Assembly: GCA_049273855.1 (NCBI GenBank)
Contig: JBASRN010000270.1
Span: 8,320-72,319 of the forward strand
Source of the DNA: Blastocatellia bacterium
GTDB taxonomy: Bacteria; Acidobacteriota; Blastocatellia; UBA7656
Direction of reading: 5' to 3'
DNA: 64,000 bases
The position numbers were made by a program, and so were the translations under genes. Shown here one piece after another: positions 22,399-52,805 of this stretch (the first letter of the stretch is position 1; each line of letters begins with the position of its first letter). The notes under the pieces were generated by a model, which saw only the letters and a program-made list of their open reading frames with translations, had not been told where the DNA came from and did no database searches.

Positions 22399-22438
22399 CT
22401 TTGTCGCCGCACGAATCTGAATCACCAGTCGCTTGGGG

Positions 22439-23461
22439 CTAAGCGGTGCAAGCCATCCTCCGTTCAACAACATTCGACGCTATATAGTCTACAACCTGCC
22501 TGCCCGTCAGGATAGCATTCTTGATGTGGACTTCACGAGTAACGTGCCCGGCAACGAAGAGCCCGGGAACTGTGGTTTCAAACGTCTCAGGAGAGTATAC
22601 CGGCCGGCCATCATCGGCGATCCTAGCTCCGGCCGTTTCAAGGAGTCGGGTATCCGGGTCGGCACCAATAAGCGCGAATATGTGGTCGCAGTCGACCTCC
22701 CACGTGGTTATATCGCCGCGCGTGCTCCGAAGAAGCGCGCTTCGCGGCCGAATCTCGATGATCTCGGTGGAAGTCAGTACCCGGAGATCGCCGGACCTGG
22801 AGGCCGCCTCGAGAGGACCGAGGACCCAAGGTTTGATCCTCGCGCGCGCGATTAATCGCCCCGAGCTCTCATCCCTGTTTGGTTCTACGGGCGGGCTGAG
22901 CTCGGTTCGGCGAACGCATAGAGTAACGTCCGCGCCGGCTTGCGAAAGGAACAGGGAGGCCTCGGCAGCTGAGTTACCCCCGCCAATCACCAACACTCGC
23001 TTGAAAACTAAAGGATGCGCTTCGAGGAAGCGATATGTGACTCGACAAGGGTCTTCGCCGGGGACACTCAGAAGCCGTCGGCGGCCAAACCCGCCAGTCG
23101 CTGCAAGCACCGCGCGCGCGCGGTAGACTCCGTCACTTGTGCGCACAAGGATTTGACCATCCGTGTTCACCAGCTCATAGACCTCTTCCCGGGTTCGCAG
23201 ATCGATGTTGTGACGCATCACCAGACGTCGATAGTGCCGCAGCAACTCTTCGCGGGTGGGCTTCCGATCCGTTGGGAGGGAACCTGAGTCTATTTCAATC
23301 TCGTCGGAGCTCGAAAACAATACGCCTCCGATCGGATAGCTGTACACTGTGTTGGCGATCGCCTCTCGCTCAAGTATGAGATAGTCAAGTCCGTGATATC
23401 GAGCCCTAACGGCAGCCGCCAACCCGGCGGGACCGCTGCCAACAATGATCAGGTCGTACAT
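22439..23461 (-). CDS. FAD/NAD(P)-binding pyridine nucleotide-disulfide oxidoreductase (thioredoxin-reductase-like)
   Basis: MYDLIIVGSGPAGLAAA dinucleotide-binding motif and a second Rossmann motif VLVIGGGNSAAE. Confidence 0.7.
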   Translation of the reverse strand: MYDLIIVGSGPAGLAAAVRARYHGLDYLILEREAIANTVYSYPIGGVLFSSSDEIEIDSGSLPTDRKPTREELLRHYRRLVMRHNIDLRTREEVYELVNTDGQILVRTSDGVYRARAVLAATGGFGRRRLLSVPGEDPCRVTYRFLEAHPLVFKRVLVIGGGNSAAEASLFLSQAGADVTLCVRRTELSPPVEPNRDESSGRLIARARIKPWVLGPLEAASRSGDLRVLTSTEIIEIRPRSALLRSTRGDITTWEVDCDHIFALIGADPDTRLLETAGARIADDGRPVYSPETFETTVPGLFVAGHVTREVHIKNAILTGRQVVDYIASNVVERRMACTA

Positions 23462-24408: not shown

Positions 24409-25527
24409 TTAAAGAAGGCGCATCGGCATGACTACATACCGGTAGCTATCGGCCTCTTCTCCAGCGGGCCTCATCAGCGCTGGGCTTTGCTCGTCCTTTA
24501 GTTCAAATACGGTTTCTTCGGTCGCTACCACTCCCAAGAAATCGAGTAGATACTGGGCGTTGAAACCGATCGTCAGATCGTCGCCGCTATAATCCACGGC
24601 GATCGCTTCTCTGGACTCGCCCACATCGGCGCTCTGTGAGCTGATGTTCAATCTCCCCTGACCAAGCTCGTATTTGATTCCATGACTCCTCTCGTCGGCC
24701 ATCAGAGCAGCGCGCCTGACTGCTTGCGCAATTTTTTCTGTATTGAGCGTCACTAGTTTATCATTGCCCTTTGGCAGCACGAGATCGTAATTTGGAAACT
24801 GTCCTGCCAGCATCCGCGATGTGAGGTGACGCTGTCCTTGTTTGAAATACAAGTGGTTTGCGTCCGTGGAGAACTCAATATCCTCCTCTGCGGCCGCGGT
24901 CAACTTCAATATCTCGGTCAGCGCCTTTTTTGGAATGATTACTCTCAACTGCTCCTTTTCACTAACAGGTACCTCTTCGATTTCGCAGTCGGCCAGCGCA
25001 AGCCTATGCCCGTCGGTTGCGACCATTCGAAGCCTGCCGTCCGAGAAGGTCAGGAGCGCCCCGCTTAGGGCGTAGCGCGACTCTTCTTGAGTGATCGCGT
25101 ACACGGTCCTGCTGATGAGATTGTGAAGCGCAGTTGACGGAATCGACATTTCAGCTTTACCGGGCTTTGGCGTCGACGGGAAGTGCTCCTTGGCTTGCCC
25201 CGCCAGTCTGAACTCTGAGGATGCACATGTAATCTTAGTCCAGTCGTTAGCTTCCTTGACGAAATCTATATCGGCATCCGGCAAGTACCGCACAAGATCA
25301 AACAGTCGCCTTGCCTGCAGCACTACCGAACCCGCTTCGGAAACGTCCGCTGCGCACTCCGTTTGAAACGACACGTCCAGATCCGTTGCCACAAGTGAGA
25401 CCAGTGATTCATTTACGGTCTCTATTAGGAGGCTGGACAGCACTGGTATTGTTGTCTTCTTCTCGACAATTCCCTGGAGTAGGTTCAACTCCTTTAGGAG
25501 TGATGCTCGGTTCAGGCGGAATCTCAT
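24409..25527 (-). CDS. dnaN: DNA polymerase III beta sliding clamp
   Basis: 372 aa, MRFRLNRASLLKELNLLQGIVEKK... canonical DnaN; immediately downstream of dnaA. Confidence 0.95.
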   Translation of the reverse strand: MRFRLNRASLLKELNLLQGIVEKKTTIPVLSSLLIETVNESLVSLVATDLDVSFQTECAADVSEAGSVVLQARRLFDLVRYLPDADIDFVKEANDWTKITCASSEFRLAGQAKEHFPSTPKPGKAEMSIPSTALHNLISRTVYAITQEESRYALSGALLTFSDGRLRMVATDGHRLALADCEIEEVPVSEKEQLRVIIPKKALTEILKLTAAAEEDIEFSTDANHLYFKQGQRHLTSRMLAGQFPNYDLVLPKGNDKLVTLNTEKIAQAVRRAALMADERSHGIKYELGQGRLNISSQSADVGESREAIAVDYSGDDLTIGFNAQYLLDFLGVVATEETVFELKDEQSPALMRPAGEEADSYRYVVMPMRLL

Positions 25528-25788: not shown

Positions 25789-27171
25789 TCATTTCATGCT
25801 AGTAATTAGATTGTCTATAACGCTGTGGAAAACTGAGTCTTTATCTCGTAAGTTTGAGATCTTATTAATGCTGTGCAACACGGTGCTGTGATGTTTTCCT
25901 CCAAACTCCCTTCCTATCTCTGGCAAGCTGGCCGATGTAAGCGTCTTACAGAGATACATTGCGACTTGGCGCGGAAATGCTATTACTCTTGTGTTGCTCT
26001 TTGACTTGAGATCGGCAGCCTTCAAACTGTAATGTCCAGCAACAATTCTCTGGATCGATTCGATCGAAGGTGCGTCGGATTCAGACTCGATGATGTTTCT
26101 GAGAATGTCCTTAGCCAAATCGATTCCTATCGGGAGCGCTTTAAGTGATGCATATGCAAGAAGCCTTACCAGCGAGCCTTCCAGTTCTCTGATGTTCGAT
26201 TTAATTTTGCTCGCGATGAATATCGCGACATCATCCGGGAGATCGATTCTCTCCAGTTCGGCCTTTCGCTTTAGGATTGCGACCTTCGTTTCGAGATCAG
26301 GCGGCTGAATATCGGCAATCAGACCCCACTCGAATCTCGAATGCAATCGCTCCTCGAGCGTCGGGATTTCTCGCGGCGGACAGTCGCTTGATATGATTAT
26401 TTGCTTTTGAGAGTCGTAGAGCGCGTTAAAGGTGTGAAAAAACTCCTCCTGAGTACGTTCCTTTCCAGCCAGGAACTGAATATCATCGATAAGCAGAACG
26501 TCGATGTTTCGATATCTGTCCCGAAACTTGATCGTCTGGTCGTATCTGATCGCATTTATCAGCTCGTTCATAAATCTCTCGGATGAGATATATGTGAGGC
26601 GCAGCGACTTATTCCTGGTCTTGATTGCATACCCAATGGCGTGCATCAAATGAGTCTTTCCCAGACCCACCCCGCCATAGATATAGAAAGGGTTATAGGT
26701 TTTGGCGGGCATGTCCACCACCGCCAGGGAAGCGGCGTGTGCGAACTGGTTACAGGAGCCCACAACAAAAGTCTCGAACTTGTATTTTGGGTTGAGCGGC
26801 AAATCTGACTGTTCGGGGACCACCGGCCTGGGCGGATCCAAGGCTTGTGAAGATCGCGGCGAGCTAAGCGGCCTATCCAGACCCGGTACAGAATCTGTGT
26901 TCGACGTTTGCCTCCTATTGTCCCCCAGAAGGAACTCGACCTTATAGCCAACTAAGCCCAGCTCCTCAAGAGACTCTTCGATTACGTCGAAATAGTTGGT
27001 GCGGATCCAATCGCGAAAGATTTCGTTCGGAACCGTTAAATAAAGGGTAGAAGAGTCCTTGGCCGCGCGCAAAATCGGTCTAAACCACGTATCGAAGCTC
27101 TCGTGGTTTAATCGCTTTGAAATCGCTCTTAGGACAGAAGAGAGGAGGTCTATCTGGACACCCGTCGTCAT
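25789..27171 (-). CDS. dnaA: chromosomal replication initiator protein DnaA
   Basis: AAA+ Walker [16 protein letters not shown], DnaA signature and C-terminal DNA-binding domain. Start taken at MTTGVQ (27171); the listed ORF extends to 27210. Confidence 0.95.
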
Positions 27172-27432
27172 TTCACGCCTCCCTATTAGGCACAGAGCAT
27201 TCGCCAACAAAAGGACGAGGTTAGCCGAGCACCGAATGGGCGACCGCGCTCCTCGATAAAGCAGACGACAACAAAGGACCGGCTGTTGAAACTCGCGAAC
27301 AGTATCACAAGTACCGAACTGTTTTCAATCCCGTCGCCTTGCGCTATATGAATAACTGCACCTTAATTAACCCAATAACAGGGTTATACCTGTTTTAATC
27401 AAAATCTGGCCCAGATCACCGCGCAATGTAGA

Positions 27433-27540: not shown

Positions 27541-28323
27541 ATGCCCAGAATAATAGCCATCGCCAACCAGAAGGGTGGCGTTGGCAAAACGACTTCCGCC
27601 ATAAACCTGGCAGCCAGCCTGGCAATTGCCGACCGACGGGTCTTGTTGGTTGACGCGGACCCACAGGGCAACAGCACCAGCGGACTGGGGTTACGGGGCA
27701 CATTTCAGAATAGCCTTTATCACTCGTTGGTCTCGAACCACTCGCTTGATTCAATCGTTTTGGCGAGTGAGTTATCGGGGCTATCGGTCATTCCCTCCGA
27801 GAAGATACTGGTGGCGGCCGAAATCGAACTTGTTGGAGTTGAAGAGAGGGAATTCAAGCTCAAAAAAGCACTGGAGCCGGTCGCCGCGAATTATGATTAT
27901 GTGCTGATCGACTGCCCGCCGAGCCTGGGACTCCTAACTTTGAACGCATTGGCTGCGGCCCACTCGGTGCTGGTTCCGATTCAATGCGAGTACTTTGCTC
28001 TTGAGGGAGTCTCGGAGCTTTGGGACACTCTGGTCAAAGTGCGTAGAAGTTTGAACCCAGCCTTGGCCATCGAGGGTTTTCTGCTTACGATGTTTGACGA
28101 AAGAACGAACCTCTCAAACCAGGTCGTATCCGATTTGAGGGGGTTTCTAGGGTCTCAAGTTTTTTCCACCGTGATACCAAGGAACGTTCGACTTGCCGAG
28201 GCACCCAGCCACGGCAAGCCGATTGTGCTGTACGATGTCCGATCTAAGGGTGCCGAAAGTTACCTTCGATTGGCACGGGAGGTGATCGACAATGTCAAGA
28301 CGGGCATTGGGCAGGGGGCTTGA
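27541..28323 (+). CDS. parA: chromosome partitioning ATPase ParA (Soj)
   Basis: Deviant Walker A IAIANQKGGVGKTTSAINLA; start at ATG 27541. Confidence 0.9.
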   Translation: MPRIIAIANQKGGVGKTTSAINLAASLAIADRRVLLVDADPQGNSTSGLGLRGTFQNSLYHSLVSNHSLDSIVLASELSGLSVIPSEKILVAAEIELVGVEEREFKLKKALEPVAANYDYVLIDCPPSLGLLTLNALAAAHSVLVPIQCEYFALEGVSELWDTLVKVRRSLNPALAIEGFLLTMFDERTNLSNQVVSDLRGFLGSQVFSTVIPRNVRLAEAPSHGKPIVLYDVRSKGAESYLRLAREVIDNVKTGIGQGA

Positions 28324-29155
28324 TGCGCTCTTCCCCCAGGCTAATCCTATCAACAACGATCTGATTGATTTGGATGTTGAGAGCATCGATCCAGGGGTCG
28401 AGCAACCTCGACGCGACTTCAACGAGGAGAAACTGACGGAACTGGCCCGATCGATAGAAGCGAACGGTGTCATTCAGCCAATCGTGGTGCGCCGAGTCGG
28501 CGAGCGATTCCAAATAATCGCCGGCGAGCGCCGCTGGCGAGCTGCGAAGAAGGCCGCTCTGAAGCGGATCCCAAGTCTGATTCGCAATGTTCCGGAGGAG
28601 AATATCCTCGAGTTGTCCCTCATTGAGAACATACAGCGCCAGGAGCTAAACCCGATAGAAGAGGCGAATGCGTATCGCAAGCTTCAGGAACAACTAGGCA
28701 TTACTCAGGAGGCAGTGGCGCAGCGAGTTGGAAAAGACCGTTCGTCGGTGACGAACTCTTTGAGACTTCTAAAGCTGCCCGAGGACGTCCAACGACTAGT
28801 CGAGGACGCCAGGCTTTCAATGGGGCACGCTCGAGCGTTACTCCCTATCGAATCCGCCGACAGGCAAAGAGACTTGGCCGAAGAGATTGTGACCAAACTG
28901 CTTTCGGTGCGACAGACTGAGAAGTTGGTTAAGAATGAACTTGCCACAAATACGCCGCGTCAAACAAAGCCCGAGCCAAAAAACGATGGTGAAACTGCCA
29001 ACATACTCGCGGCCGAGGCAAAGCTGAGCAGGAGGCTTGGAGCGCCAGTAAGGATCAGGTCCCTGAAAGCCGGGGGCGTGGTTGAAATTAGGTTCTCGTC
29101 GAGAGACGAACTTTCACGGATCTTCGATCTACTAATACGGAGGCCGCTGGAGTGA
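28292..29155 (+). CDS. parB: chromosome partitioning protein ParB (Spo0J)
   Basis: MSRRALGRGLDALF N-terminus, ParB box GERRWRAA, HTH; overlaps parA by 32 bp. Confidence 0.9.
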   Translation: MSRRALGRGLDALFPQANPINNDLIDLDVESIDPGVEQPRRDFNEEKLTELARSIEANGVIQPIVVRRVGERFQIIAGERRWRAAKKAALKRIPSLIRNVPEENILELSLIENIQRQELNPIEEANAYRKLQEQLGITQEAVAQRVGKDRSSVTNSLRLLKLPEDVQRLVEDARLSMGHARALLPIESADRQRDLAEEIVTKLLSVRQTEKLVKNELATNTPRQTKPEPKNDGETANILAAEAKLSRRLGAPVRIRSLKAGGVVEIRFSSRDELSRIFDLLIRRPLE

Positions 29156-29541
29156 AAAACTCTCTCAAACTGAGCCACTAACCCCAAAGTCCCTTTGCTA
29201 CAACAAATGAGATTTTCTGCTCTCCTCGACTCATCGTTCTAATTACAACGATGACCGTCCTCCGCTGTTGTGATGACTTCCGAAACCTCTTCGTGAAAGT
29301 GATATCAACTACGCGAGTACTTTCGTGGATAGGACCGCCAATATTCCAGCAGCAGTGGTGCAAACAAGTTGATGTGGTCTGTTAGCACTTGTTTGACGTG
29401 AGCAGCGCCGAGTGGCTTCCAATGCAGTCCAGTCAATCCAGGTAGCGACGCGTTGCGAAAGCCGTTGGTAGTGTCCTAATTCTGTGTTGCTAGCCCTGAG
29501 ATACTTGTTTCGCCTTGCATCGGTCGTGCTAACATTGGTTC

Positions 29542-29805
29542 ATGCCAAAGCGCCCAAGCAAGAGCGACCCGAGCCTTTTCGCAAAGAACGTTCTGGATCA
29601 CATCATCAGCAAGTACGATCCAGAGGCAGTTGAATCGGTCTTTGTAGCTGATAGTGCTAGCGAGAAGCCCGCCAAGAACCCCGCTGCCGTCGCCCTGGGC
29701 AAGCTCGGAGGCTCCAAGGGCGGTCGCGCTAGGGCCGCTAGTCTTTCACCTCGCAAGCGCAAGCAGATCGCCAAGAAAGCAGCTAAGGCGCGATGGAGCA
29801 AATGA
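29542..29805 (+). CDS. small lysine/arginine-rich protein (putative nucleic-acid binding), low-GC islet
   Basis: 87 aa; C-terminal NPAAVALGKLGGSKGGRARAASLSPRKRKQIAKKAAKARW. Overlaps the next ORF start by 13 bp (ATGGAGCAAATGATGA). Confidence 0.4.
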   Translation: MPKRPSKSDPSLFAKNVLDHIISKYDPEAVESVFVADSASEKPAKNPAAVALGKLGGSKGGRARAASLSPRKRKQIAKKAAKARWSK

Positions 29806-30152
29806 TGAATATAGAGAACCGAACCGTCATAACGGGCTTCGCTCAGCAGACCCATACAGTCGAATATAGCCCAGCGCAACTGATGTTAGGATTCAGTCAA
29901 CTCTCAGGACGCATTACAGGCACTGATCGCGAAGAAAGTGTGAGAAGTACCGTTATACTTCTTGCGAGCAGTATAACCGCTTGGAGCATTGATAATACAC
30001 CACTGCTAGTCACGGAAGCAGAAATAGGCAAATTACCGGACAACCTTATCGGCTTCATTTTTAGTGAGATCAGCCAAGATACGGCACGCTTCATGGAGCA
30101 GTTCGCTGCCAACTTTAACATACTCCTCAAAGGCGATCCCGACGGCGGCTGA
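29793..30152 (+). CDS. hypothetical protein (translationally coupled to upstream small basic protein)
   Basis: 119 aa with no recognisable domain; lower GC than the genome average. Confidence 0.3.
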   Translation: MEQMMNIENRTVITGFAQQTHTVEYSPAQLMLGFSQLSGRITGTDREESVRSTVILLASSITAWSIDNTPLLVTEAEIGKLPDNLIGFIFSEISQDTARFMEQFAANFNILLKGDPDGG

Positions 30153-30189
30153 TGGCCCTGGCCCCGGTTCTGACGATTGCTTAATCACT

Positions 30190-31305
30190 TGAAACCTCAT
30201 TCTTACCCCCTCCTTTTTTTCTTACGTAGCAACGCAATTTTGTTGACAATGCTTAGGCGTCTATGCTAATCTCGTGTTGCTCGGAAAGGGGCAACGAAAT
30301 GAACTGCCAAGATTGCAAAGCGCCGTCAAAGAAATTCGGGAAAGACCGCAAGGGAAATCAGCGTTTCCGCTGCCTGTCTTGCGGAAAGACGTTTAGCGAG
30401 CCGCGCCCGCGTCTCTTGGGGAACATGACGCTAGACGAAAACAAAGCGATTGATTGCCTCAGGCTCTTGGTCGAGGGCAATTCGATTCGGAGCATAGAGA
30501 GGTTTACCGGCGTTCATCGCAATACGATTATGAGCCTTCTTGAGCTAGCGGGCGAACGATGCGAAAAGCTGATGGAAGATCGCATCAAGCACCTATCTGT
30601 TAATGACGTTCAATGCGATGAAGTTTGGGGCTACGTTGGAATGAAAGAGCGAACCAAGGCTCGCAAGGGCGTTGATGACGATAACCTTGGCGATGCTTGG
30701 ACGTTCACCGCGATTGAACGCAATACCAAAATGATTCTTGCCTTTCACCTTGGCCGAAGAACGGAAGCCGATACGATTGCTTTCACTGAGAAGTTGGCCC
30801 ACGCAACTAAGGGCAGTTTTCAAATCACAACAGACGGATTCAGACCGTATCAACACGCAGTTGTTATGAGTCTCGGAGCGCAGCGCGTAGACTTCGCGCA
30901 ACTTGTTAAGCTCTACTCCAGCACACCGGAAGGGCCGCAGACTCGCTACTCCCCGGCTGAGTGTACTGGAGCCCGTAAGGTTCCGATCTACGGTAGTCCT
31001 GATATGGACAAGGTTTCCACTTCGCATATCGAACGCCACAATCTTTCGATCAGAATGAGTACTCGAAGAATGACAAGACTCACTAATGCGTTCTCAAAGT
31101 CTTGGAAGAATCATCAAGCGGCTCTTGCAGTTTATCTTGCCTACTACAATTTTTGTCGCGTACATCAAACGCTAAGAATCACTCCAGCAATGGAGGCAAA
31201 CATTACAGATCACGTCTGGACAATGCGCGAGCTACTAGGCTAAAGCGCGCTTGCCTTTGTTGCCAATATGATATAATAACAGAACCTCTCATTTAGGGGG
31301 TTTAG
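30190..31305 (+). mobile_element. IS1-family insertion sequence (boundaries approximate)
   Basis: Single-ORF IS1-type transposase within the low-GC islet. Flanking AACCTCATT / AACCTCTCATT and ACCCCCT / AGGGGGT motifs are noted, but terminal inverted repeats could not be resolved confidently. Confidence 0.4.
30299..31243 (+). CDS. IS1 family transposase (fused InsAB-like single ORF)
   Basis: N-terminal zinc finger CQDCKAPS...CLSCGK, then DEVWGYVG, TTDGFRPY and C-terminal YNFCRVHQTLRITPAME motifs typical of IS1 transposases. ATG 30299 with a GGAAAGGGG RBS. Confidence 0.8.
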   Translation: MNCQDCKAPSKKFGKDRKGNQRFRCLSCGKTFSEPRPRLLGNMTLDENKAIDCLRLLVEGNSIRSIERFTGVHRNTIMSLLELAGERCEKLMEDRIKHLSVNDVQCDEVWGYVGMKERTKARKGVDDDNLGDAWTFTAIERNTKMILAFHLGRRTEADTIAFTEKLAHATKGSFQITTDGFRPYQHAVVMSLGAQRVDFAQLVKLYSSTPEGPQTRYSPAECTGARKVPIYGSPDMDKVSTSHIERHNLSIRMSTRRMTRLTNAFSKSWKNHQAALAVYLAYYNFCRVHQTLRITPAMEANITDHVWTMRELLG

Positions 31306-31308
31306 GCC

Positions 31309-31545
31309 ATGTTTAAAGACGAACTAGAATACTTTGTTGCTCATCAAGAAGAACTAGTCGAAAAGTATCAAGGTAAAGTATTGGTTATAAAAGGAAACGA
31401 GCTATTAGGCGTCTATGATGACGCTCTCGAAGCGTATCTTGAAGCGCAAAAACGGTATGAGCTTGGGACGTTTATGATCCAAGCTTGTGAGCCAGGACCA
31501 CAAGCGTATAGCGTTACCATTGGTTCGATACAATCGTTTACCTAA
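31309..31545 (+). CDS. small protein, DUF5678-like (putative partner of downstream aspartic protease)
   Basis: 78 aa; ELVEKYQGKVLVIKGNELLGVYDDALEAYLEAQKRY pattern. Stop TAA is directly followed by the ATG of the next gene. Confidence 0.4.
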   Translation: MFKDELEYFVAHQEELVEKYQGKVLVIKGNELLGVYDDALEAYLEAQKRYELGTFMIQACEPGPQAYSVTIGSIQSFT

Positions 31546-32151
31546 ATGACTAATCCGCAGATTCGTCATATTCTTGCTTTCACTACCACGTTCCCCGGTC
31601 TTACAGATCGCATTATCACCGAAGTAAAGCTAACCCAAGCGTTTGATCCAAACACGCCACCAAATCCCATACCGGCGCTCATAGCAACAGCTGCATTATG
31701 GGATACAGGGGCAACTAGGAGCGTCATCACCCCGAGTATTGCGGCAGATCTGAAACTTGTTCCAACGGGAACCGTGATGATGAATTCTGCGCATGGTTCC
31801 AAACAATGCAACACGTATCTAGTTAACCTTTACTTGCCCAACGGCGCTGCGATTTATGGTGTTCCCGTTAGCGAATGCACGGACACTGCTCACTTTGGAG
31901 CGATCATCGGAATGGACATTATTGCGATGGGCGACTTCTCGATTACGAATGTAAATCGCAAGACGATAGTTTCCTTCCGCATCCCGTCTATTGCCACCGT
32001 GGACTACGTCGCCGACGTCAAGAAACTGAAGGCAGAACAAGAAAGGCTGGAGAACGCAAAGCCGATTCGCAATAAGGGTCCGCGTGTCGGGCGCAATGAC
32101 CCATGTCCCTGCGGATCGGGGAAGAAGTACAAGAAATGCTGCGGCGGCTAG
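31546..32151 (+). CDS. retropepsin-like (clan AA) aspartic protease with C-terminal SEC-C zinc-binding motif
   Basis: [10 protein letters not shown] catalytic D-T-G-A, downstream IIGMDII flap/dimer motif, and a C-terminal [18 protein letters not shown] that exactly fits the SEC-C motif. Confidence 0.65.
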
Positions 32152-46368: not shown

Positions 46369-48609
46369 ATGCATCGCAGAGTTCTTTCTGTCTTTCTAAG
46401 TTTTTGCTTGTTTGCTTCGTTCGCGGCTGCAGGCCCTCACCAAAAACCAGCGGCACGCAAGGCGAAACCAGCCCCGCAGAAGCCGCCGGCTGCGAAGCAG
46501 GAAGTAAAGACTGGGCCGACCGCCGCAAAGCCGGCCGAACCCTCGAAAAAGCCGCCCCGGGCCGACAACCAGTGGGCGTTGGTGGTCGGGATCAGCAAGT
46601 ATCCGGGTCAAATTCAGAGTTTGAATTTTCCGCGCGACGATGCGCGCGCGGTCAAGGACATGCTCGTTACCGACGCAGGGTTCGCTGAAGATCACATCCG
46701 ATTGCTCACCGACGATGGGGCCGGGGAGGCTAAGGCGACGAGGCAGAACATTCTTGCTGCAGTGGACGGCTACCTGGCGCCGCGTGTGCAGCCGGGGCAC
46801 GAGGTAATCGTTTTCTTCGCCGGCCACGGGATCGCTCGTGGCCTGGGCCAGCAAGCGAAGAGCTACTTCCTGCCGGTCGACGTCGATGCGCAGTCAAAGG
46901 AATCGCTCGAGCGAACGGCTGTCGATCTGGAGGATCTTGCGCGCCGGCTCAGCGTATTGAAGGCGTCTCAGTTTTCGATATTCATAGACGCCTGCCGCGA
47001 AGACCCCTTTCCGGGCCGCGGCATCAAGGGCAACACGATGACCGATGTTATGAGCCGCGGCTTGCGGATAACGCGCGGCGGTTCCACGGCTGCCGAAGCG
47101 GCGCCGGCGACTTCGATCATCTTTTACGCCTGCAAAGTTGGCGAGCGCGCTTACGAAGATCCTGAACTCAAGCACGGCGTCTTTACTTATTTTATTCTTT
47201 CCGGAATTCGAGACCTGGCGAACAGGCCGGACGGCCGGGTGGACGCCGGCTTTCTAGCAAATTTTTTGCGCGACAATATGCAAAAGTGGAGCTCGGAGTA
47301 TCAGAAGCGCGCGCGCTATGCCGTAGAGCAGACGCCGATGATGGTCGCGACTGAGGTGCACGGCCCGCTGGTCATCGTTCGATTGGCTCAGATTGCGGCG
47401 AACCCTCCGGCGCCGCCGGCCACCGGCTCGATCGCTCTGTTCACCTCGCCGAAGGACGCTACGTTGAGCTTGAATGGCAAAACGTTGGGCACCGCGCCGA
47501 TCGAAAAGGAAATCCAGGCTGGTGAGTACACCGTTCGAGCCGAGTCGCAGGGCTTTCAACCCACCGAAGCAAAGATCACGGTTGTGCCCGGCTACCAGCA
47601 GGAATTTACGATCACGTTGAAACCAACCGCAACCAACGCCAGTTACGAGAAGGGTGTGCAGTTCGAAGCTCAAAAGCTGTGGCCGCAAGCGGTCGCTTCC
47701 TACGAACAGGCACTGCGCGAAGACCCGAGCCTGACCGCCGCACTGGAGCGTCTGGCAAACGCATACACCGCAGCCGGACGTTTTCGCGATGCTGCCGATC
47801 TGCTAACCACGGCTTCTGAGAAGGCTCCCGACAATGCAGTGTTGCTTGCGCGGCGCTCGCGGGCTCTTGGCCAATGGTCGCTGCAAGACGAGACCCTGGA
47901 CGCCTCGATAAACCCGCGACCGGATAAGGCGACCAGGTACAAGGACGCCGCCAAGGAAGCGGTTAGAGCGGCGGAGCTGGCCACCAAGAAAGCACCCGAC
48001 CTTGCGGTTGTTAATCTCGCGCTCGGGTATGCGTACACGCTTCAGGAACGCGACCGGCCGAAGGCGATCCCGGCGTTTGTCCGCGCCTCGACGATCGCGC
48101 CCGAAGACCCGGAAAGCTACTATGGAGTTGGCTACGGCTATCGGCTGATGAAGCAGTACCCGCAGGCGATTCCTCAATTAAGGAAGGCCATCGAGCTGCG
48201 GTCTGATTACTACGAAGCGCATCGCGAGCTGGCTTATTGCTATCACGCGACAGGCGACACCGATCAAGCGATCAAAGAGTACAACACCGCGAGCGGTTAT
48301 CAAGGAGAGACCAGCAACTCTGGCGACATGGCGGGCAATCATCTCGCGCTCTCCGCGCTCTACGCCGAGAAGGGTCAGCAGGTGGGTGGCGCAGAAGGAG
48401 AAGAGATCTCGAAAGCAGGGAAGGGTCACGAGACTGAAGCCCGGGGCTACGATCCAACGTTGAAAGCGGCCCTCAAGATACTGCAAGGCAGCGGCGTGGC
48501 GTATCGCATGCAAAGTTACTTGCCGTCAGAGTTACGCAACGTTATCAACACCCCGGGGGTGCCTGTGCCCGGCGGCGTTAAGATACCGTTTCCGAGGAAG
48601 CGTCCGTAG
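46369..48609 (+). CDS. caspase-like (peptidase C14) domain protein with PEGA domain and TPR repeats
   Basis: Signal peptide. C14 core WALVVGISKY...VIVFFAGHGI (catalytic His) ... SIFIDACRE (catalytic Cys). PEGA-like TLSLNGKTLGTAPIEKE...YTVRAESQGFQP, then TPR repeats. Confidence 0.7.
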   Translation: MHRRVLSVFLSFCLFASFAAAGPHQKPAARKAKPAPQKPPAAKQEVKTGPTAAKPAEPSKKPPRADNQWALVVGISKYPGQIQSLNFPRDDARAVKDMLVTDAGFAEDHIRLLTDDGAGEAKATRQNILAAVDGYLAPRVQPGHEVIVFFAGHGIARGLGQQAKSYFLPVDVDAQSKESLERTAVDLEDLARRLSVLKASQFSIFIDACREDPFPGRGIKGNTMTDVMSRGLRITRGGSTAAEAAPATSIIFYACKVGERAYEDPELKHGVFTYFILSGIRDLANRPDGRVDAGFLANFLRDNMQKWSSEYQKRARYAVEQTPMMVATEVHGPLVIVRLAQIAANPPAPPATGSIALFTSPKDATLSLNGKTLGTAPIEKEIQAGEYTVRAESQGFQPTEAKITVVPGYQQEFTITLKPTATNASYEKGVQFEAQKLWPQAVASYEQALREDPSLTAALERLANAYTAAGRFRDAADLLTTASEKAPDNAVLLARRSRALGQWSLQDETLDASINPRPDKATRYKDAAKEAVRAAELATKKAPDLAVVNLALGYAYTLQERDRPKAIPAFVRASTIAPEDPESYYGVGYGYRLMKQYPQAIPQLRKAIELRSDYYEAHRELAYCYHATGDTDQAIKEYNTASGYQGETSNSGDMAGNHLALSALYAEKGQQVGGAEGEEISKAGKGHETEARGYDPTLKAALKILQGSGVAYRMQSYLPSELRNVINTPGVPVPGGVKIPFPRKRP

Positions 48610-48660
48610 CGCCGAAGCTTTCTCGTGACAGGGGAGCGATCGGGTGTTCGTCCGATTTGA

Positions 48661-49635
48661 TCAGAACAAAGAAGGCTGACTGACAGCCAGGCCCGATCGA
48701 CTCTTCATCCAACTCAGCAGGTCGTCGATGTCTTTCAGGTCAGACTCGGCAACCGGCGAGGCCCCTTTCCTGATCAACGCGTGGTTGCCGGCGGGCACTT
48801 CGTCGCCCATTCTCACAAACACCGGACACGAGCCGGACTTCAACGCCTCCGTAGCCCCCGCCCAGGTCCCGCCTTTCTCGACGTCGCTCGAAACCACTAC
48901 CGCGTAGTCCGCGAAACCGTAGATCAACTTGTTGCGACCCATCGCAGCGCCGATCGAAAACCCTGCCGAAGGTGAATAAGGAGTCACCAACGCCAGCTTC
49001 CTGTCGGAAAGCGCGTCGCGCAGGTTGGGCGCGCGAACCGCCCGCTCCAGGCTGTCGGCGAGCACCCCCAGCGACGTGCCGCCCGCGGAAAGCGACGCTC
49101 CCATCGCAATCGCGTCCGTGCCGCGAGCGCCGCCCGAGATAACCGTCACCGAAAGCCCGGCGCACTTCTGGCCGATTTCCTCGGCGAAACTCTTTCCGCG
49201 TTCGTCAACGCTTCGGGACCCCACAACCGCAACCCCGCCCTTGTTCAACAGTGCGAGTTTGCCGGCCGCGAACAAGACGGGCGGCGCCACATGCTTGAGC
49301 GACTCACGAAGCCGCGACGGATAGTCTTCATCGACGCAGGTCACCGGCGTTATGCCGAGACTCGTGAGTCGCTCGACTTCTATTGCAACCGACTCGCTGT
49401 CTTCGAGTAGATGGTGGATTCGCTCGGCGTCAACCGGCGGAATCTCGAGCTCGGCGGCTATCTCCGACGCCCCAAGTCCGAGCAACGCGCCTGCGGCACC
49501 TAGCGCGGACGAGCTGATCTTTCGCGACAGCTCATTCCATTCTCTGGCCGACAGAGGCCGCACGCCGTCAGCCGGATCTGAATCGCCAGCAGTTGAACAG
49601 AGCAGCAGCACCGCCTGACTATCATCGTTTAACAT
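48661..49635 (-). CDS. dprA: DNA processing protein DprA (Smf/DprA-SLOG Rossmann family)
   Basis: VAVVGSRSVDERG ... VISGGARGTDAIAMGASL ... LALVTPYSP ... FSIGAAMGRNKLI motifs of DprA. Start abuts the stop of the upstream RecQ fusion gene. Confidence 0.85.
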   Translation of the reverse strand: MLNDDSQAVLLLCSTAGDSDPADGVRPLSAREWNELSRKISSSALGAAGALLGLGASEIAAELEIPPVDAERIHHLLEDSESVAIEVERLTSLGITPVTCVDEDYPSRLRESLKHVAPPVLFAAGKLALLNKGGVAVVGSRSVDERGKSFAEEIGQKCAGLSVTVISGGARGTDAIAMGASLSAGGTSLGVLADSLERAVRAPNLRDALSDRKLALVTPYSPSAGFSIGAAMGRNKLIYGFADYAVVVSSDVEKGGTWAGATEALKSGSCPVFVRMGDEVPAGNHALIRKGASPVAESDLKDIDDLLSWMKSRSGLAVSQPSLF

Positions 49636-51738
49636 TCAACTGCTCCCAACAGTCGCGCTCGCCAGGGCGAACGGATAGACAGGGCCGCTTCCGTTCTTCC
49701 GCAGCAGCCACGACACCACGGTCAAGGTCCACCGCGAGTCCACCACGTCGTCGATCAACAGAACGGGGTCGTTCGGCACTTCGCCGACAACCTCGAAAGC
49801 ATCAATCACGTTCCGCAGTTGCTGCGCGCTGTTCTGCATACTCTTCTGCGCGGGTCGTTCAATTGTCTTTCGTAAGACGGGTATAAACGGCAAACCCAAC
49901 CTCTGGGCGAGACGCGCCGCGAAAGTATACACCAGCGTTGGATCACGCAACGAAGGCACGGCGGTGACCCACGCCGGGGGAGGGTCGGGTTGCCACCGCC
50001 GTTGAATCATCTCAGCCGAAGCGTCGGCGAGCGTGTCGCCGAACTGTCGGGTTTGATACTTGCAGCGGGCGACTTCTCGCCCCCAGCCGGCGTCGCCGTA
50101 GACGCTCAGCACGCGGCCGGCGCTCGCCCTCAGGTCTTCCGGTATGCGCCCCGACACAAGCGGCGATGCCCCGCTTTGCCATTGTTTTCTCGGCTCGATC
50201 ACCAGCGCCGCTCCACGAAGGTACGCGACTGCGCGTTGTTTGAGCCGCTCGTCCAGATCGCGTTTTGGAAGCTTGCCCGTGCAGTTCATACATCGTCCGC
50301 ACCTTGCCGCCGCGGGGTCGTCGAGCGCCTGCGCCAGAAACTCCATCAAGCAGCGGTCGAGCGCGACGTAGCGGCGCATCTCTTCCAGCTCGCGCAGTCT
50401 CAACGCGGTCACCGCTTCGGTGCGAGCCGTGTCGGGCTGCCAGTGGTTCGGTGTACGAGAGTAACGCCTTTTGTCTCGCGAAACCGCGCCGTCGAGTTCC
50501 AGCAGCTTCAGCGCTTTTTCGATCGTCCCAAACGAGTAGTTGAGCGCGTTCATGATCTCGAAGATGGTCAAGCCAACGGTCGGCTCGACCAGATCGATGA
50601 TCTCCTGCATAGCGCGTTCGGGTGGAAACGCGGACCGGATGAAGTACTCCTGTATCTCGTCGTCTTCGCGGCCGCTGAGCAGAATGCCAAACGCGCTGTC
50701 GACTGCGCGACCCGCGCGTCCGACCTGCTGATAGTACGCGATGACCGAGCCGGGCCGCTGGAAGTGTATGACGAACCCCAGGTCGGGTTTGTCGTAGCCC
50801 ATCCCGAGCGCGGTCGTCGCTACCAGACACTTGATCTGGTTTCCGAGCAAGGCTTGCTCTGCGCCGGTCCGCTCTTCCTCCGGAAGATCGGCGTAGTACG
50901 GGCGAGCTTCGATGCCGTTCTCACTCAGCCAGCTTGATACCCGTCGCACGTCGTTGACGGTCAGGCAGTAGACGATTCCGCTTCCTTCAAGGTTTGGCAG
51001 ATGTTGCGCGAGCCATGCGAGGCGTTCGCTCTGATCGGCGAGCTGGATGTTGAACAACCGCAGCGAAGGTCGCGTGAGCGCTCCACGCTGCACCTTGAGG
51101 TCCGAGCCGATCTGAGCGATTACATCATCGATGACCCGGGTGTTTGCGGTGGCTGTCGTGCACAGCACCGGCACTTTCGAAGGCAGCGCTTGAAGCACGC
51201 GCACGATTCGCCTGTAGTCGGGCCGGAAATCGTGACCCCAATCAGAGATGCAGTGCGCTTCGTCGACTACTAACAGGCCTACCCGCTCTCGAATTTTCGC
51301 AAGCACGTTGTTTAAGAAGCGCTCATTGTTGAGTCGCTCGGGCGCGATCAACAGGATGTCGCACTCGTCTTGCTGCAACTGCAATTCGACGCCGTCCCAC
51401 TCTTCGGTATTGTCGCTGTTGATCGTCGCCGGCCGGATGCCAAGGCCCCGAGCCATGTCCAGCTGATTGCGCATCAGCGCGCGTAGCGGGCTGACCAGAA
51501 GTGTGGGTCCCGCACCCGCGTCGCGCAGCAGCCTGGTTGACAAGAAATAGACGAGACTCTTTCCCCAACCTGTGCGCTGCACAACCAGGAGCCGTCCGCG
51601 ATTGACCGCGATCTCGCTAATGGCATCCCATTGACGTTCGCGGAACCGTGCATTCCTGCCATACATTTGTTTGAGTAGCGCCTCGGCTTTTGCCTGGTGA
51701 GGATCCGACATCGAAACCTCCGACGCGCCCGCAGGCAA
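49636..51738 (-). CDS. RecQ-family DNA helicase fused to C-terminal ComFC/GntX-like phosphoribosyltransferase (PRTase-fold) domain
   Basis: Helicase motifs (QRTGWGKSLVY, VVDEAHCISDWGHDFRP, RQC zinc motif RCGRCMNCTG). The final ~200 aa (...R..R...Q..L...RNVIDAF.V......PVLLIDDVVDSRWTLTVV...) match the ComFC-type PRTase signature. Confidence 0.85.
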   Translation of the reverse strand: MPAGASEVSMSDPHQAKAEALLKQMYGRNARFRERQWDAISEIAVNRGRLLVVQRTGWGKSLVYFLSTRLLRDAGAGPTLLVSPLRALMRNQLDMARGLGIRPATINSDNTEEWDGVELQLQQDECDILLIAPERLNNERFLNNVLAKIRERVGLLVVDEAHCISDWGHDFRPDYRRIVRVLQALPSKVPVLCTTATANTRVIDDVIAQIGSDLKVQRGALTRPSLRLFNIQLADQSERLAWLAQHLPNLEGSGIVYCLTVNDVRRVSSWLSENGIEARPYYADLPEEERTGAEQALLGNQIKCLVATTALGMGYDKPDLGFVIHFQRPGSVIAYYQQVGRAGRAVDSAFGILLSGREDDEIQEYFIRSAFPPERAMQEIIDLVEPTVGLTIFEIMNALNYSFGTIEKALKLLELDGAVSRDKRRYSRTPNHWQPDTARTEAVTALRLRELEEMRRYVALDRCLMEFLAQALDDPAAARCGRCMNCTGKLPKRDLDERLKQRAVAYLRGAALVIEPRKQWQSGASPLVSGRIPEDLRASAGRVLSVYGDAGWGREVARCKYQTRQFGDTLADASAEMIQRRWQPDPPPAWVTAVPSLRDPTLVYTFAARLAQRLGLPFIPVLRKTIERPAQKSMQNSAQQLRNVIDAFEVVGEVPNDPVLLIDDVVDSRWTLTVVSWLLRKNGSGPVYPFALASATVGSS

Positions 51739-52169
51739 GCTAACTACCAGACCGATGTAACAAAGTCAACGATGTGGGCAGGAGTTTAGTGGTGGAATAG
51801 CGTGTTGAGGCGGCGGATGCTGTCTTGCCACAAAGGCGCTAAGTCACAAAGCTACACAAAAACAGGCTTTGTGGGGGCTTTGTGTCCTGGTGTCGTAGTG
51901 GCGAGCATTCACGCGCAATTCCACCACGACGGGCAGGAGTCCTGGTGTCCTCACTTCATTTGTCTGCCGTCGCCGCCTGCTCCAAGACTCTCGCGGTGTG
52001 ACTTCGGCCCTGGGTTCACCGCTGCGCCGGGGAGGACGCAATGGTTACGCAGATAGAACATTCGAATTCGGACATCACCATCGGGAAATGGAATGGCCAA
52101 GAATCGACTGTCTCGAACTAATGGATGATCATCGGGAGCTTTCCGCGGCGTTCCTTCGAACAAAACTGC

Positions 52170-52598
52170 TTAGCCAGCGAGCTTCGCCTGCAGTCTTATC
52201 TCGGTTCCCGTCAATGCTCGCGAGACCGGGCAATTCTTCTTGGCCGCCTCGGCATGCTCCAGAAAAATCCTCTCGTCGATGCCGGGCACTTCAGCCGTCG
52301 TTTCAAGCTCGATCAACGTTATCGCAAAGCCTCCCTCGGCTTGCCCGAGATGGACCTTCGCCGTAGTGGCAATGCGCCTGGGAGATATGTGAGCCTTCGC
52401 TAGCCCCGCCGCAAGCGCCATCGAGAAGCACCCGGCATGAGCCGCGCCGATCAACTCTTCGGGATTGGTCCCCGCGCCATCTTCGAACCGCGAGGCGAAA
52501 GAGTATGGGCCTTCGAACGCTCCGCTCCCCAGTTTGACTGTGCCCTTGCCTTCTCTGAGGGTTCCTTCCCAGACGGCGCTGCCATTGCGTGTTGCCAT
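52170..52598 (-). CDS. OsmC/Ohr family peroxiredoxin-like protein
   Basis: ELIGAAHAGCFSMALA and C-terminal KNCPVSRAL cysteine motifs of OsmC. Start taken at MATRNG. Confidence 0.8.
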   Translation of the reverse strand: MATRNGSAVWEGTLREGKGTVKLGSGAFEGPYSFASRFEDGAGTNPEELIGAAHAGCFSMALAAGLAKAHISPRRIATTAKVHLGQAEGGFAITLIELETTAEVPGIDERIFLEHAEAAKKNCPVSRALTGTEIRLQAKLAG

Positions 52599-52805
52599 TA
52601 CTTGAGCCTCCCATGAAGAAGTTAGTGAACCCGCCTTCAGGCGGAGTTGTGACCGGCCCGCCAAAACAGCGGCCCGTTACAACTTCCGGCTGAAGGCGGT
52701 ACTACGAACATATATGTGCGGATGCTTGTTTTCAAACAATTGGCGGAAATGAACGCGCCCGTCGACTAAGCGAGTAGGGACGAAATTCAATCGGGAGGCA
52801 ACGAA

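Follow-up and report, generated by a model that had tools for sequence, protein, structure and literature searches.

A gene for a RecQ-type helicase with a ComFC-like C-terminal extension lies directly against a dprA-like gene in the window, i.e. the whole stretch of 64,000 nucleotides from a Blastocatellia (Acidobacteriota) MAG that was analysed here. The question is whether these two genes serve DNA uptake, DNA repair or a conflict system, or are neighbours only by chance. We put the probability at about 0.93 that the pair is a chromosomal PsyrTA (= RqlHI) toxin-antitoxin/anti-phage system. It is an ordinary member of a published system, already known and not a new module.

[quoted passage not shown] For PsyrTA of P. 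syringae, PsyrT is toxic without PsyrA, as Russell & Mulvey cite from Sberro 2013. PsyrTA is also among the experimentally validated anti-phage systems (Millman et al. 2022 preprint); in one native-host study, an E. coli PsyrTA gave no detectable phage protection.

Gene layout and domain architecture

The features of the locus are as follows:

49636..51711, minus strand: psyrT (rqlH), RecQ-like helicase with ComFC-like PRTase, 691 aa from ATG 51711, stop TGA 49638-49636
50704..51639, minus strand: SF2 RecQ-type ATPase/helicase core (aa 25-336), Pfam DEAD 84.6 bits, Helicase_C 60.2 bits
50422..50703, minus strand: RqlH-specific linker of ~94 aa (aa 337-430), between the Helicase_C end and the RecQ_Zn_bind start
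50278..50421, minus strand: tetracysteine zinc-binding module (aa 431-478), C454, C471, C474 and C477
49657..50250, minus strand: ComFC-like type-I PRTase domain (about aa 488-685), putative toxic effector by homology to RqlH
49726..49764, minus strand: PRPP-binding loop VLLIDDVVDSRWT (aa 650-662), with the acidic pair D654-D655
49633..49647, minus strand: gene junction, SD-like GGGAG 49647-49643, stop TGA 49638-49636, start ATG 49635-49633
48661..49635, minus strand: psyrA (rqlI), DprA-fold antitoxin in its short form, 324 aa

The mechanically called ORF of psyrT spans 49636-51738 on the minus strand and encodes 700 aa from a TTG at 51738. This 700-aa ORF, on which the preliminary description was based, is present, but the probable protein has 691 aa. 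Translation most likely begins at the ATG at 51711, which is codon 10 of that ORF, and not at the TTG, because a GGAGG (51721-51717) lies 5 nt upstream and the resulting 691 aa equal the length of the nearest homologs and of M. smegmatis RqlH. Residue numbers of PsyrT motifs follow the 691-aa numbering.

The stop codon of the helicase gene does touch the start codon of the dprA-like gene, as first described, with zero gap (...AGT TGA ATG TTA...), and GGGAG is found 7 nt 5' of the psyrA ATG, within the 3' end of psyrT. This layout is suited to translational coupling of psyrA to psyrT, which would then be expected here. In E. coli the two genes are co-transcribed according to RT-PCR, and rqlH is always located upstream of rqlI (PMC4670107); judging from this result and from the gene spacing, psyrT and psyrA probably form a single transcription unit. 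A promoter and terminator scan of 48300-52800 gave no signal above chance.

The PADLOC model of PsyrT (PDLC03928) matches with E=8.6e-289 and 957.6 bits, residues 15-697 in the 700-aa numbering being aligned to positions 5-686 of 689. The PADLOC model of PsyrA (PDLC03927) matches with E=8e-100 and 332.7 bits over model positions 3-308 of 398. A full-length PsyrT match, a PsyrA match, and the toxin-then-antitoxin order of two abutting genes on one strand together place the pair in PsyrTA. The earlier suggestion of an uncharacterised system fails against these matches and the published work on PsyrTA/RqlHI, while the alternative suggested with it, a conflict or immunity system, was of the right kind, PsyrTA being an anti-phage system.

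In the helicase part of PsyrT, the expected RecQ core with GWGKS (Walker A, 48-52), DEAH (150-153) and a zinc motif was found, together with motif III TATA (186), motif VI QQVGRAGR (328-335) and the RecQ aromatic loop HCISDWGHDFR at 153-163. K51 and D150 are the equivalents of the catalytic K49 and D148 in M. smegmatis RqlH, from which helicase activity is predicted. PsyrT scores 244.4 bits on TIGR00614 (recQ_fam), above the cutoff of 219.8, and stays below the cutoffs of the recQ equivalog TIGR01389 (281.7 vs 640.2 bits) and of NF008279 (210.3 vs 1015 bits). Structures of RecQ, BLM and RECQ1 align to residues ~1-360 only, and the profile search gave no match to an HRDC domain at E<=1. HTH_41 and GntR matches in the linker are weak and sub-threshold. 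The RecQ_Zn_bind score is 19.9 bits, under the cutoff of 25, and the zinc-site residues C454, C471, C474 and C477 show no substitution in an alignment of the window protein with 119 homologs. PsyrT has the features of the RqlH clade: a RecQ-like SF2 ATPase with motifs I, II, III and VI, a spacer of ~90 aa, no HRDC and a ComF-like PRTase C-terminus. The namesake of this clade, M. smegmatis RqlH, is biochemically characterised as a DNA-dependent ATPase and a 3'-5' translocase and helicase with a ComF-like C-domain (Ordonez, Unciuleac & Shuman 2012, PMC3378886), and its 90-aa spacer is without counterpart in E. coli RecQ (Ordonez 2012, PMC3378886).

The resemblance of the C-terminal extension to the ComFC PRTase fold is real, since the closest solved structure is ComF, not ShosT, but the domain occupies ~190-200 aa (roughly 488-685) and not the last 90 residues as was stated earlier. 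On PRK11595 (GntX) it scores 18.8 bits, below the cutoff of 304. In the PRPP loop, D655 is invariant among 120 aligned sequences, while residue 660 varies (98 with G, 20 with R, 2 with K). We considered the G-to-R change in this loop (DSRWT vs DSGWT) as a sign of an inactivated or unusual PRTase, and rejected it because this site is taken by R, G, A, K, C or S in the family (S[RGAKCS]WT, 80 loci) and SRWT is also present in the E. coli homolog (DDIVNSRWT).

PsyrA is a paralog of DprA. It has the DprA-like fold, and to this extent the former label of a bona fide DprA is correct, but it scores under the DprA equivalog thresholds (98.3 vs 191.15 bits on TIGR00732 dprA; 83.7 vs 495 bits on PRK10736). 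The ShosA HMM matches it at 2.5e-26. The C-terminal ~90 positions of the 398-position PsyrA model are absent from the window protein; this short form is common among related loci, and the C-terminal region is dispensable in E. coli RqlI (Russell & Mulvey 2015, PMC4670107).

These scores bear on the competence reading of the preliminary description, in which a RecQ motor, joined to a ComFC-like domain, takes the place of ComFA and acts with DprA on incoming ssDNA. ComF as the nearest structure and the DprA fold of the partner agree with such a module, and the analogy was noted by Ordonez 2012 (PMC3378886) and by Russell & Mulvey 2015 (PMC4670107), who also argued against it. However, the DprA and GntX/ComFC cutoffs are all missed, and no competence gene was found among the window genes scanned with Pfam. 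Moreover, the pair acts as toxin and antitoxin in E. coli, in which Russell & Mulvey (PMC4670107) detected no transformation, the same family gives phage protection (Millman 2022), and in one E. coli genome psyrTA adjoins another defence system. The competence reading is unsupported, and we regard it as extremely improbable.

Conservation and genomic setting of the pair

Public annotation names the second gene 'DNA-processing protein DprA' and the helicase homologs 'RecQ family ATP-dependent DNA helicase', as would be expected if an ordinary RecQ and an ordinary DprA had come together by chance. This explanation is refuted. A PsyrA homolog lies immediately downstream on the same strand in 76 of 77 informative loci from more than a dozen phyla, so the adjacency is not accidental, and the proposed check of neighbour conservation came out in favour of a genuine pair. 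The gap between the genes is <=30 nt in 68 of 76 related loci, and 32 of the 76 overlap (26) or abut exactly (6). The RecQ and DprA equivalog cutoffs are both missed, whereas the PsyrT and PsyrA models are matched almost end to end.

For example, an E. coli locus of the same architecture contains a 692-aa RqlH-type protein and a 'DprA' gene with 1-nt overlap. Identity to this pair is 49% over 691 aa for PsyrT and 41% for PsyrA, and the E. coli proteins match the models at 6.6e-278 (PsyrT) and 5.5e-136 (PsyrA). At least 577 genome contigs contain the PsyrT C-domain. When E. coli genomes were searched at the DNA level, the matches covered ~5% of the query; one annotated E. coli locus was taken from this search, and its count of 1676 genomes, which may include canonical recQ, was not used.

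Compared with the syntenic ortholog, dN/dS is 0.13 for psyrT and 0.17 for psyrA. With catalytic motifs intact and purifying selection on both genes, the window copy looks functional, as far as can be judged from sequence.

The pair is situated among housekeeping genes, ~22 kb from dnaA. There is no defence island around it, the other window genes scanned with Pfam being housekeeping, metabolic or IS element genes. A low-GC stretch at 24-32 kb was considered as a mobile island carrying psyrTA and rejected, because this stretch comprises the dnaA-dnaN/parAB origin region together with an IS element and lies ~17 kb from psyrTA. DnaA boxes were enriched in a dispersed manner and formed no distinct oriC cluster. 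Searches of the window for tRNA genes and Rfam families gave no matches.

This setting is relevant to another reading, namely that PsyrT is a housekeeping repair or recombination helicase (RqlH as a RecQ substitute) with a DprA-like mediator, and that toxicity is an overexpression artefact. A chromosomal location near the origin and outside defence islands fits it, as do the intact helicase motifs, the purifying selection and the native E. coli PsyrTA that gave no phage protection. M. smegmatis, which lacks RecQ and has RqlH, possesses in the latter an active 3'-5' helicase (Ordonez 2012, PMC3378886), and the related antitoxin ShosA reportedly neutralises via DNA binding, recombination and RecA. 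However, deletion of rqlI alone in E. coli leads to RqlH-dependent genotoxicity at native expression, and the toxicity maps to the PRTase domain, not the helicase (PMC4670107). The pair is conserved beside shared as well as beside unrelated flanking genes, it moves as a unit among unrelated genomic contexts, and a 93%-identical relative gained a candidate defence ATPase right beside psyrA. A primarily housekeeping role is very unlikely.

Toxin-antitoxin model and its significance

As a PsyrTA system, the window pair could work as follows, by analogy with its characterised relatives. The ATPase core, the RqlH-specific linker and the tetracysteine zinc module of PsyrT would form a RecQ-like 3'-5' helicase, and its ComFC-like PRTase C-terminus would be the toxic effector. 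PsyrA, presumably translated from the same message as psyrT, would bind the PRTase domain through its DprA-like structure and restrain the toxicity; in E. coli, RqlI co-precipitates with the RqlH PRTase domain (PMC4670107). Infection or stress, as the supposed trigger, may remove or divert PsyrA and release the PRTase-dependent activity of PsyrT, which would cause genotoxic stress (SOS induction, filamentation, viability loss) and thereby abort phage replication. E. coli RqlH loses its toxicity when D663 or DIVD663 is mutated (Russell & Mulvey 2015, PMC4670107), and D654-D655 of the PRPP loop, the apparent equivalent, is present in the window PsyrT. The helicase motor of E. coli RqlH modulates its toxicity. 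The window copy is probably toxic or defensive by this analogy.

It is conceivable, though unlikely, that the helicase brings its ComFC-like PRTase onto ssDNA or replication intermediates and that DNA or DNA-bound bases are phosphoribosylated there directly, with the DprA-fold partner gating ssDNA access. DNA phosphoribosylation was floated earlier by Russell & Mulvey (PMC4670107); if true, it would concern the whole PsyrT/RqlH family and nothing special to the window copy, the PRTase chemistry being a family-wide question. RqlH occurs without RqlI in M. smegmatis and many Gram-positive bacteria (Ordonez 2012, PMC3378886; Russell & Mulvey 2015, PMC4670107), and therefore the helicase may act in repair as well. 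Under the phosphoribosylation reading, the Acidobacteriota pair, origin-proximal, outside islands and with an HTH-less PsyrA, might contribute to genome maintenance no less than to defence.

The locus has little discovery value: its architecture, gene pairing, toxin-antitoxin behaviour and anti-phage function have all been described in print, and the pair is picked up by standard defence-system finders. Its practical value lies in annotation, as the names DprA and RecQ invite a mistaken inference of natural competence or of a repair RecQ. In addition, the documented range of PsyrTA is extended to Blastocatellia, and two natural variants that are common can be seen at the locus, namely PsyrA in its short form and the alternation of G and R in the PRPP loop.

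Comparison with known systems

The window locus shares with PsyrTA/RqlHI the same two genes, their order, strand and tight joining. It differs in that PsyrA, at 324 aa, is shorter than the 400-aa E. coli RqlI and lacks the HTH-containing C-terminal region of the latter, and in that the four zinc cysteines are retained in PsyrT but missing from the E. coli protein used for comparison. Moreover, this copy, known here from its sequence, resides in an Acidobacteriota MAG outside a defence island. M. smegmatis RqlH is identical to the window PsyrT in length (691 aa), domain order and spacing, but it has no RqlI partner, whereas the window PsyrT has an adjoining one.

With canonical RecQ, PsyrT has in common the RecQ-family helicase core and the zinc module; the extra linker, the PRTase domain, the lack of HRDC and the equivalog score below cutoff distinguish it. 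PsyrA and canonical DprA share an N-terminal helical domain and a Rossmann/SLOG fold, but PsyrA reaches 333 bits with the PsyrA model vs 98 bits with TIGR00732. The PsyrT C-domain is likewise not an ortholog of ComFC/ComF (H. pylori ComF, PDB 7p0h) according to its 18.8 bits vs 304. It is fused to a RecQ-type motor and not to a ComFA-type one as in transformation, its family acts as a toxin (shown in E. coli RqlH), and the window genes scanned with Pfam include no competence gene.

ShosTA (Pu et al. 2025; Yang et al. 2026) is also composed of a PRTase-domain toxin and a DprA-like antitoxin, and provides abortive-infection-type phage defence. However, the PRTase of ShosT is paired with a pyrophosphatase-fold domain while that of PsyrT is paired with a helicase, and ShosA does not bind ShosT directly, in contrast to the association of RqlI with the PRTase domain of RqlH.

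Gene limits and domains of PsyrT

The pair (psyrT and psyrA in P. syringae naming, rqlH and rqlI in E. coli naming) and the PRPP loop of its first product are located as follows:

49636-51738, minus strand, helicase-PRTase ORF (mechanical ORF, 700 aa from TTG)
48661-49635, minus strand, DprA-like ORF (324 aa from ATG)
PsyrT residues 650-662, PRPP loop VLLIDDVVDSRWT, with R at 660

As the preliminary description stated, the psyrT stop codon TGA (49638-49636) directly abuts the psyrA start codon ATG (49635-49633); the junction reads AGT TGA ATG TTA, and GGGAG lies 7 nt upstream of the psyrA ATG. The 700-aa ORF is present, but judging from the sequence the real start is probably the in-frame ATG at 51711 (codon 10), which makes the TTG-based product 9 residues too long, because GGAGG lies 5 nt upstream, the resulting 691 aa equal the length of the closest homologs among the matches listed, and the register of the PsyrT model agrees. 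M. smegmatis RqlH is also 691 aa long.

The RecQ core is confirmed. In the Pfam scan, DEAD and Helicase_C are matched at 84.6 and 60.2 bits, RecQ_Zn_bind and Pribosyltran stay below their cutoffs (19.9 vs 25 bits and 19 vs 26.3 bits, respectively), and no HRDC domain was found. In NCBIfam, PsyrT belongs to the RecQ family (TIGR00614; 244.4 bits, above the cutoff of 219.8) and is far from the RecQ equivalog cutoff (281.7 vs 640.2). The motifs GWGKS (48-52), DEAH (150-153), TATA (186) and QQVGRAGR (328-335) are intact, as is the RecQ aromatic loop, and C454, C471, C474 and C477 are invariant in PsyrT and 119 of 119 aligned homologs. Sequence matches to solved RecQ, BLM, RECQ1 and RECQ5 structures are confined to residues ~1-360.

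The last 236 residues were modelled by AlphaFold2 from a 20-sequence alignment, and the model is confident (pLDDT 84.3, pTM 0.79). Its top Foldseek match in PDB is H. pylori ComF (7p0h; E=4.4e-5), followed by APRT, PurF, PRPP synthetase and ShosT, and the sequence profile of this domain matches only PRTases in PDB, with the best-scoring alignments covering the PRPP loop. The predicted PRTase/ComFC assignment is thus correct. The ComFC-like fold had been assigned to the last 90 residues; the fold stands, while the modelled domain spans ~190-200 aa (roughly residues 488-685). Position 660 is R in the window and G in the common form. R660 was considered as a mark of an inactivated PRTase and ruled out, since R, G, A, K, C or S occur here across the family and SRWT is also present in an E. 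coli homolog.

PsyrA and conservation of the pair

PsyrA matches DNA_processg_A (132 bits) and SLOG in Pfam, and does not reach either DprA equivalog cutoff (98.3 vs 191.15 and 83.7 vs 495). Thus, it is a DprA-fold paralog and not the competence DprA. PsyrA lengths in related loci are bimodal (~320-340 aa and ~400-450 aa), and the 324 aa in the window represent the common short form, which corresponds to the E. coli RqlI 1-320 truncation that nearly completely rescued the ΔrqlI growth defect (Russell & Mulvey 2015, PMC4670107). The NCBI record 100% identical to PsyrA is named “MAG: DNA-processing protein DprA [Blastocatellia bacterium]”, and public names for the helicase homologs are “RecQ family ATP-dependent DNA helicase” or even “RecG”. 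Such names carry no toxin-antitoxin or defence flag and may lead to wrong conclusions on competence or repair.

The helicase-PRTase protein has at least >8000 homologs. The 120 matches listed mostly show 97-100% query coverage and 55-93% identity, and the source-named homologs among them come from Acidobacteriota, Verrucomicrobiota and Chloroflexota. A scan with the C-domain alignment over one genome per species found at least 577 contigs. From the best 80 of these loci, covering more than a dozen phyla, 77 were informative (downstream sequence of 800 nt or more), and in 76 of them the gene that follows on this strand encodes a PsyrA homolog (tblastn E<=5e-37), so the pair is indeed conserved as neighbours. 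The intergenic gap is no more than 30 nt in 68 of 76 loci; the genes overlap in 26 and abut exactly as in the window in 6. In a relative with 93% PsyrT identity the pair has the same neighbours as in the window, and in Verrucomicrobiota its neighbours are unrelated. Both genes are under purifying selection, as dN/dS against the syntenic ortholog is 0.13 for psyrT and 0.17 for psyrA.

The sole exception is a Candidatus Parabeggiatoa contig (L082 2648-5875), which carries a full-length PsyrT homolog with no PsyrA detectable in the 1146 nt downstream. In an Anaerolineales MAG (L040 2395-4215), PsyrT is detectable only at residues ~444-691 despite ~2.4 kb of upstream sequence, and an intact 322-aa PsyrA follows after ~110-180 nt, depending on the start codon chosen; this locus represents a helicase-less variant or else a toxin truncated to a remnant beside a retained antitoxin.

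Genomic neighbourhood

The following features lie near the origin region:

24409-25527, minus strand, dnaN
25789-27210, minus strand, dnaA
27496-28323, plus strand, parA
28292-29155, plus strand, parB
30263-31243, ORF with IS1-type DDE transposase domain
31546-32151, ORF with aspartyl-protease-like domain and SEC-C motif

The presence of dnaN, dnaA, parA and parB at 24.4-29.2 kb indicates that the window is chromosomal and near the origin. This region coincides with a low-GC stretch (24-32 kb; 0.48-0.53 vs about 0.58). The window contains 16 DnaA-box-like 9-mers where 5.3 are expected; this enriched set is dispersed, and a clear oriC cluster was not located in it. About 1.1 kb (29155-30263) contains no ORF of at least 150 aa, and 30263-32151 is a possible insertion element.

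On one side psyrTA is flanked by an OsmC-like gene, a glyoxalase, DUF6265, an ECF sigma factor and PriA, and on the other by a caspase-PEGA-TPR protein, a TPR/PMT protein, a hydrolase and an acyl-CoA ligase-type enzyme; these flanks are not a defence island. PEGA and TPR domains are combined in two large secreted-looking proteins (46369-48609 and 20587-22473), and the former, convergent with psyrA and syntenic in the 93%-identical relative (L001), also has a caspase (Peptidase_C14) domain. With otherwise identical flanks, this relative carries a 1.87-kb insert right after psyrA (L001 9049-10921), at a position that in the window is just a 52-bp spacer (48610-48660), therefore the site next to psyrA is variable between close relatives. 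The insert carries a 69-aa ORF and two ORFs that match, respectively, the N-terminal and the C-terminal half of PADLOC PDC-M07A (AAA_21/AAA_15 candidate-defence ATPase), as would be expected if a candidate defence gene had been split or frameshifted.

Comparison with PsyrTA/RqlHI systems

PADLOC models match the pair almost end to end (PsyrT, E=8.6e-289, positions 5-686 of 689; PsyrA, E=8e-100, positions 3-308 of 398). PsyrTA was described as an antitoxin homologous to DprA with a PRTase-containing toxin, and was listed among the experimentally validated anti-phage systems (Millman et al. 2022, preprint). In M. smegmatis RqlH, the ATPase (1-346) is followed by the RqlH-specific linker, the tetracysteine zinc domain (435-499) and a C-terminal ComF-like PRTase domain; HRDC is absent, and the 3'-5' helicase activity is independent of the C-domain (Ordonez et al. 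2012, PMC3378886). [quoted passage not shown] The same study raised the ComF/DprA competence analogy and then argued against it. All architectural features defining RqlH and PsyrTA are found in the window pair, which belongs to this published system as an ordinary and apparently functional copy. In summary, the preliminary observation is confirmed and its domain interpretation largely right, while the claim of an uncharacterised system is wrong, RqlH and RqlHI having been published in 2012 and 2015.

By analogy, toxin-antitoxin-type abortive defence is the best supported mechanism. The DprA-fold PsyrA would bind and restrain the PRTase domain of PsyrT, and the PRTase-dependent genotoxic activity would be released when PsyrA is lost or diverted. 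Triggering models are available from the related ShosTA system, although ShosA does not directly bind ShosT, unlike RqlI with RqlH. According to a 2025 preprint, ShosT is the only defence PRTase with a characterised function, and a native-host study of one E. coli PsyrTA saw no protection.

A comparison locus comes from E. coli NZ_AP021946.1:

L084 3120-6589, NZ_AP021946.1 chromosome, E. coli PsyrTA-type pair

Here a 692-aa “RecQ family” gene overlaps a 463-aa “DprA” gene by 1 nt, and the pair scores 6.6e-278 for PsyrT and 5.5e-136 for full-length PsyrA. Identity with the window proteins is 49% over 691 aa for PsyrT and 41% over 296 aa for PsyrA. The four zinc cysteines of the window PsyrT are missing from the E. 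coli RqlH-type protein, whose partner is the long form whereas that of the window is short, and, unlike in the window, the E. coli pair lies in a defence-island context, directly beside an ABC-three-component system.
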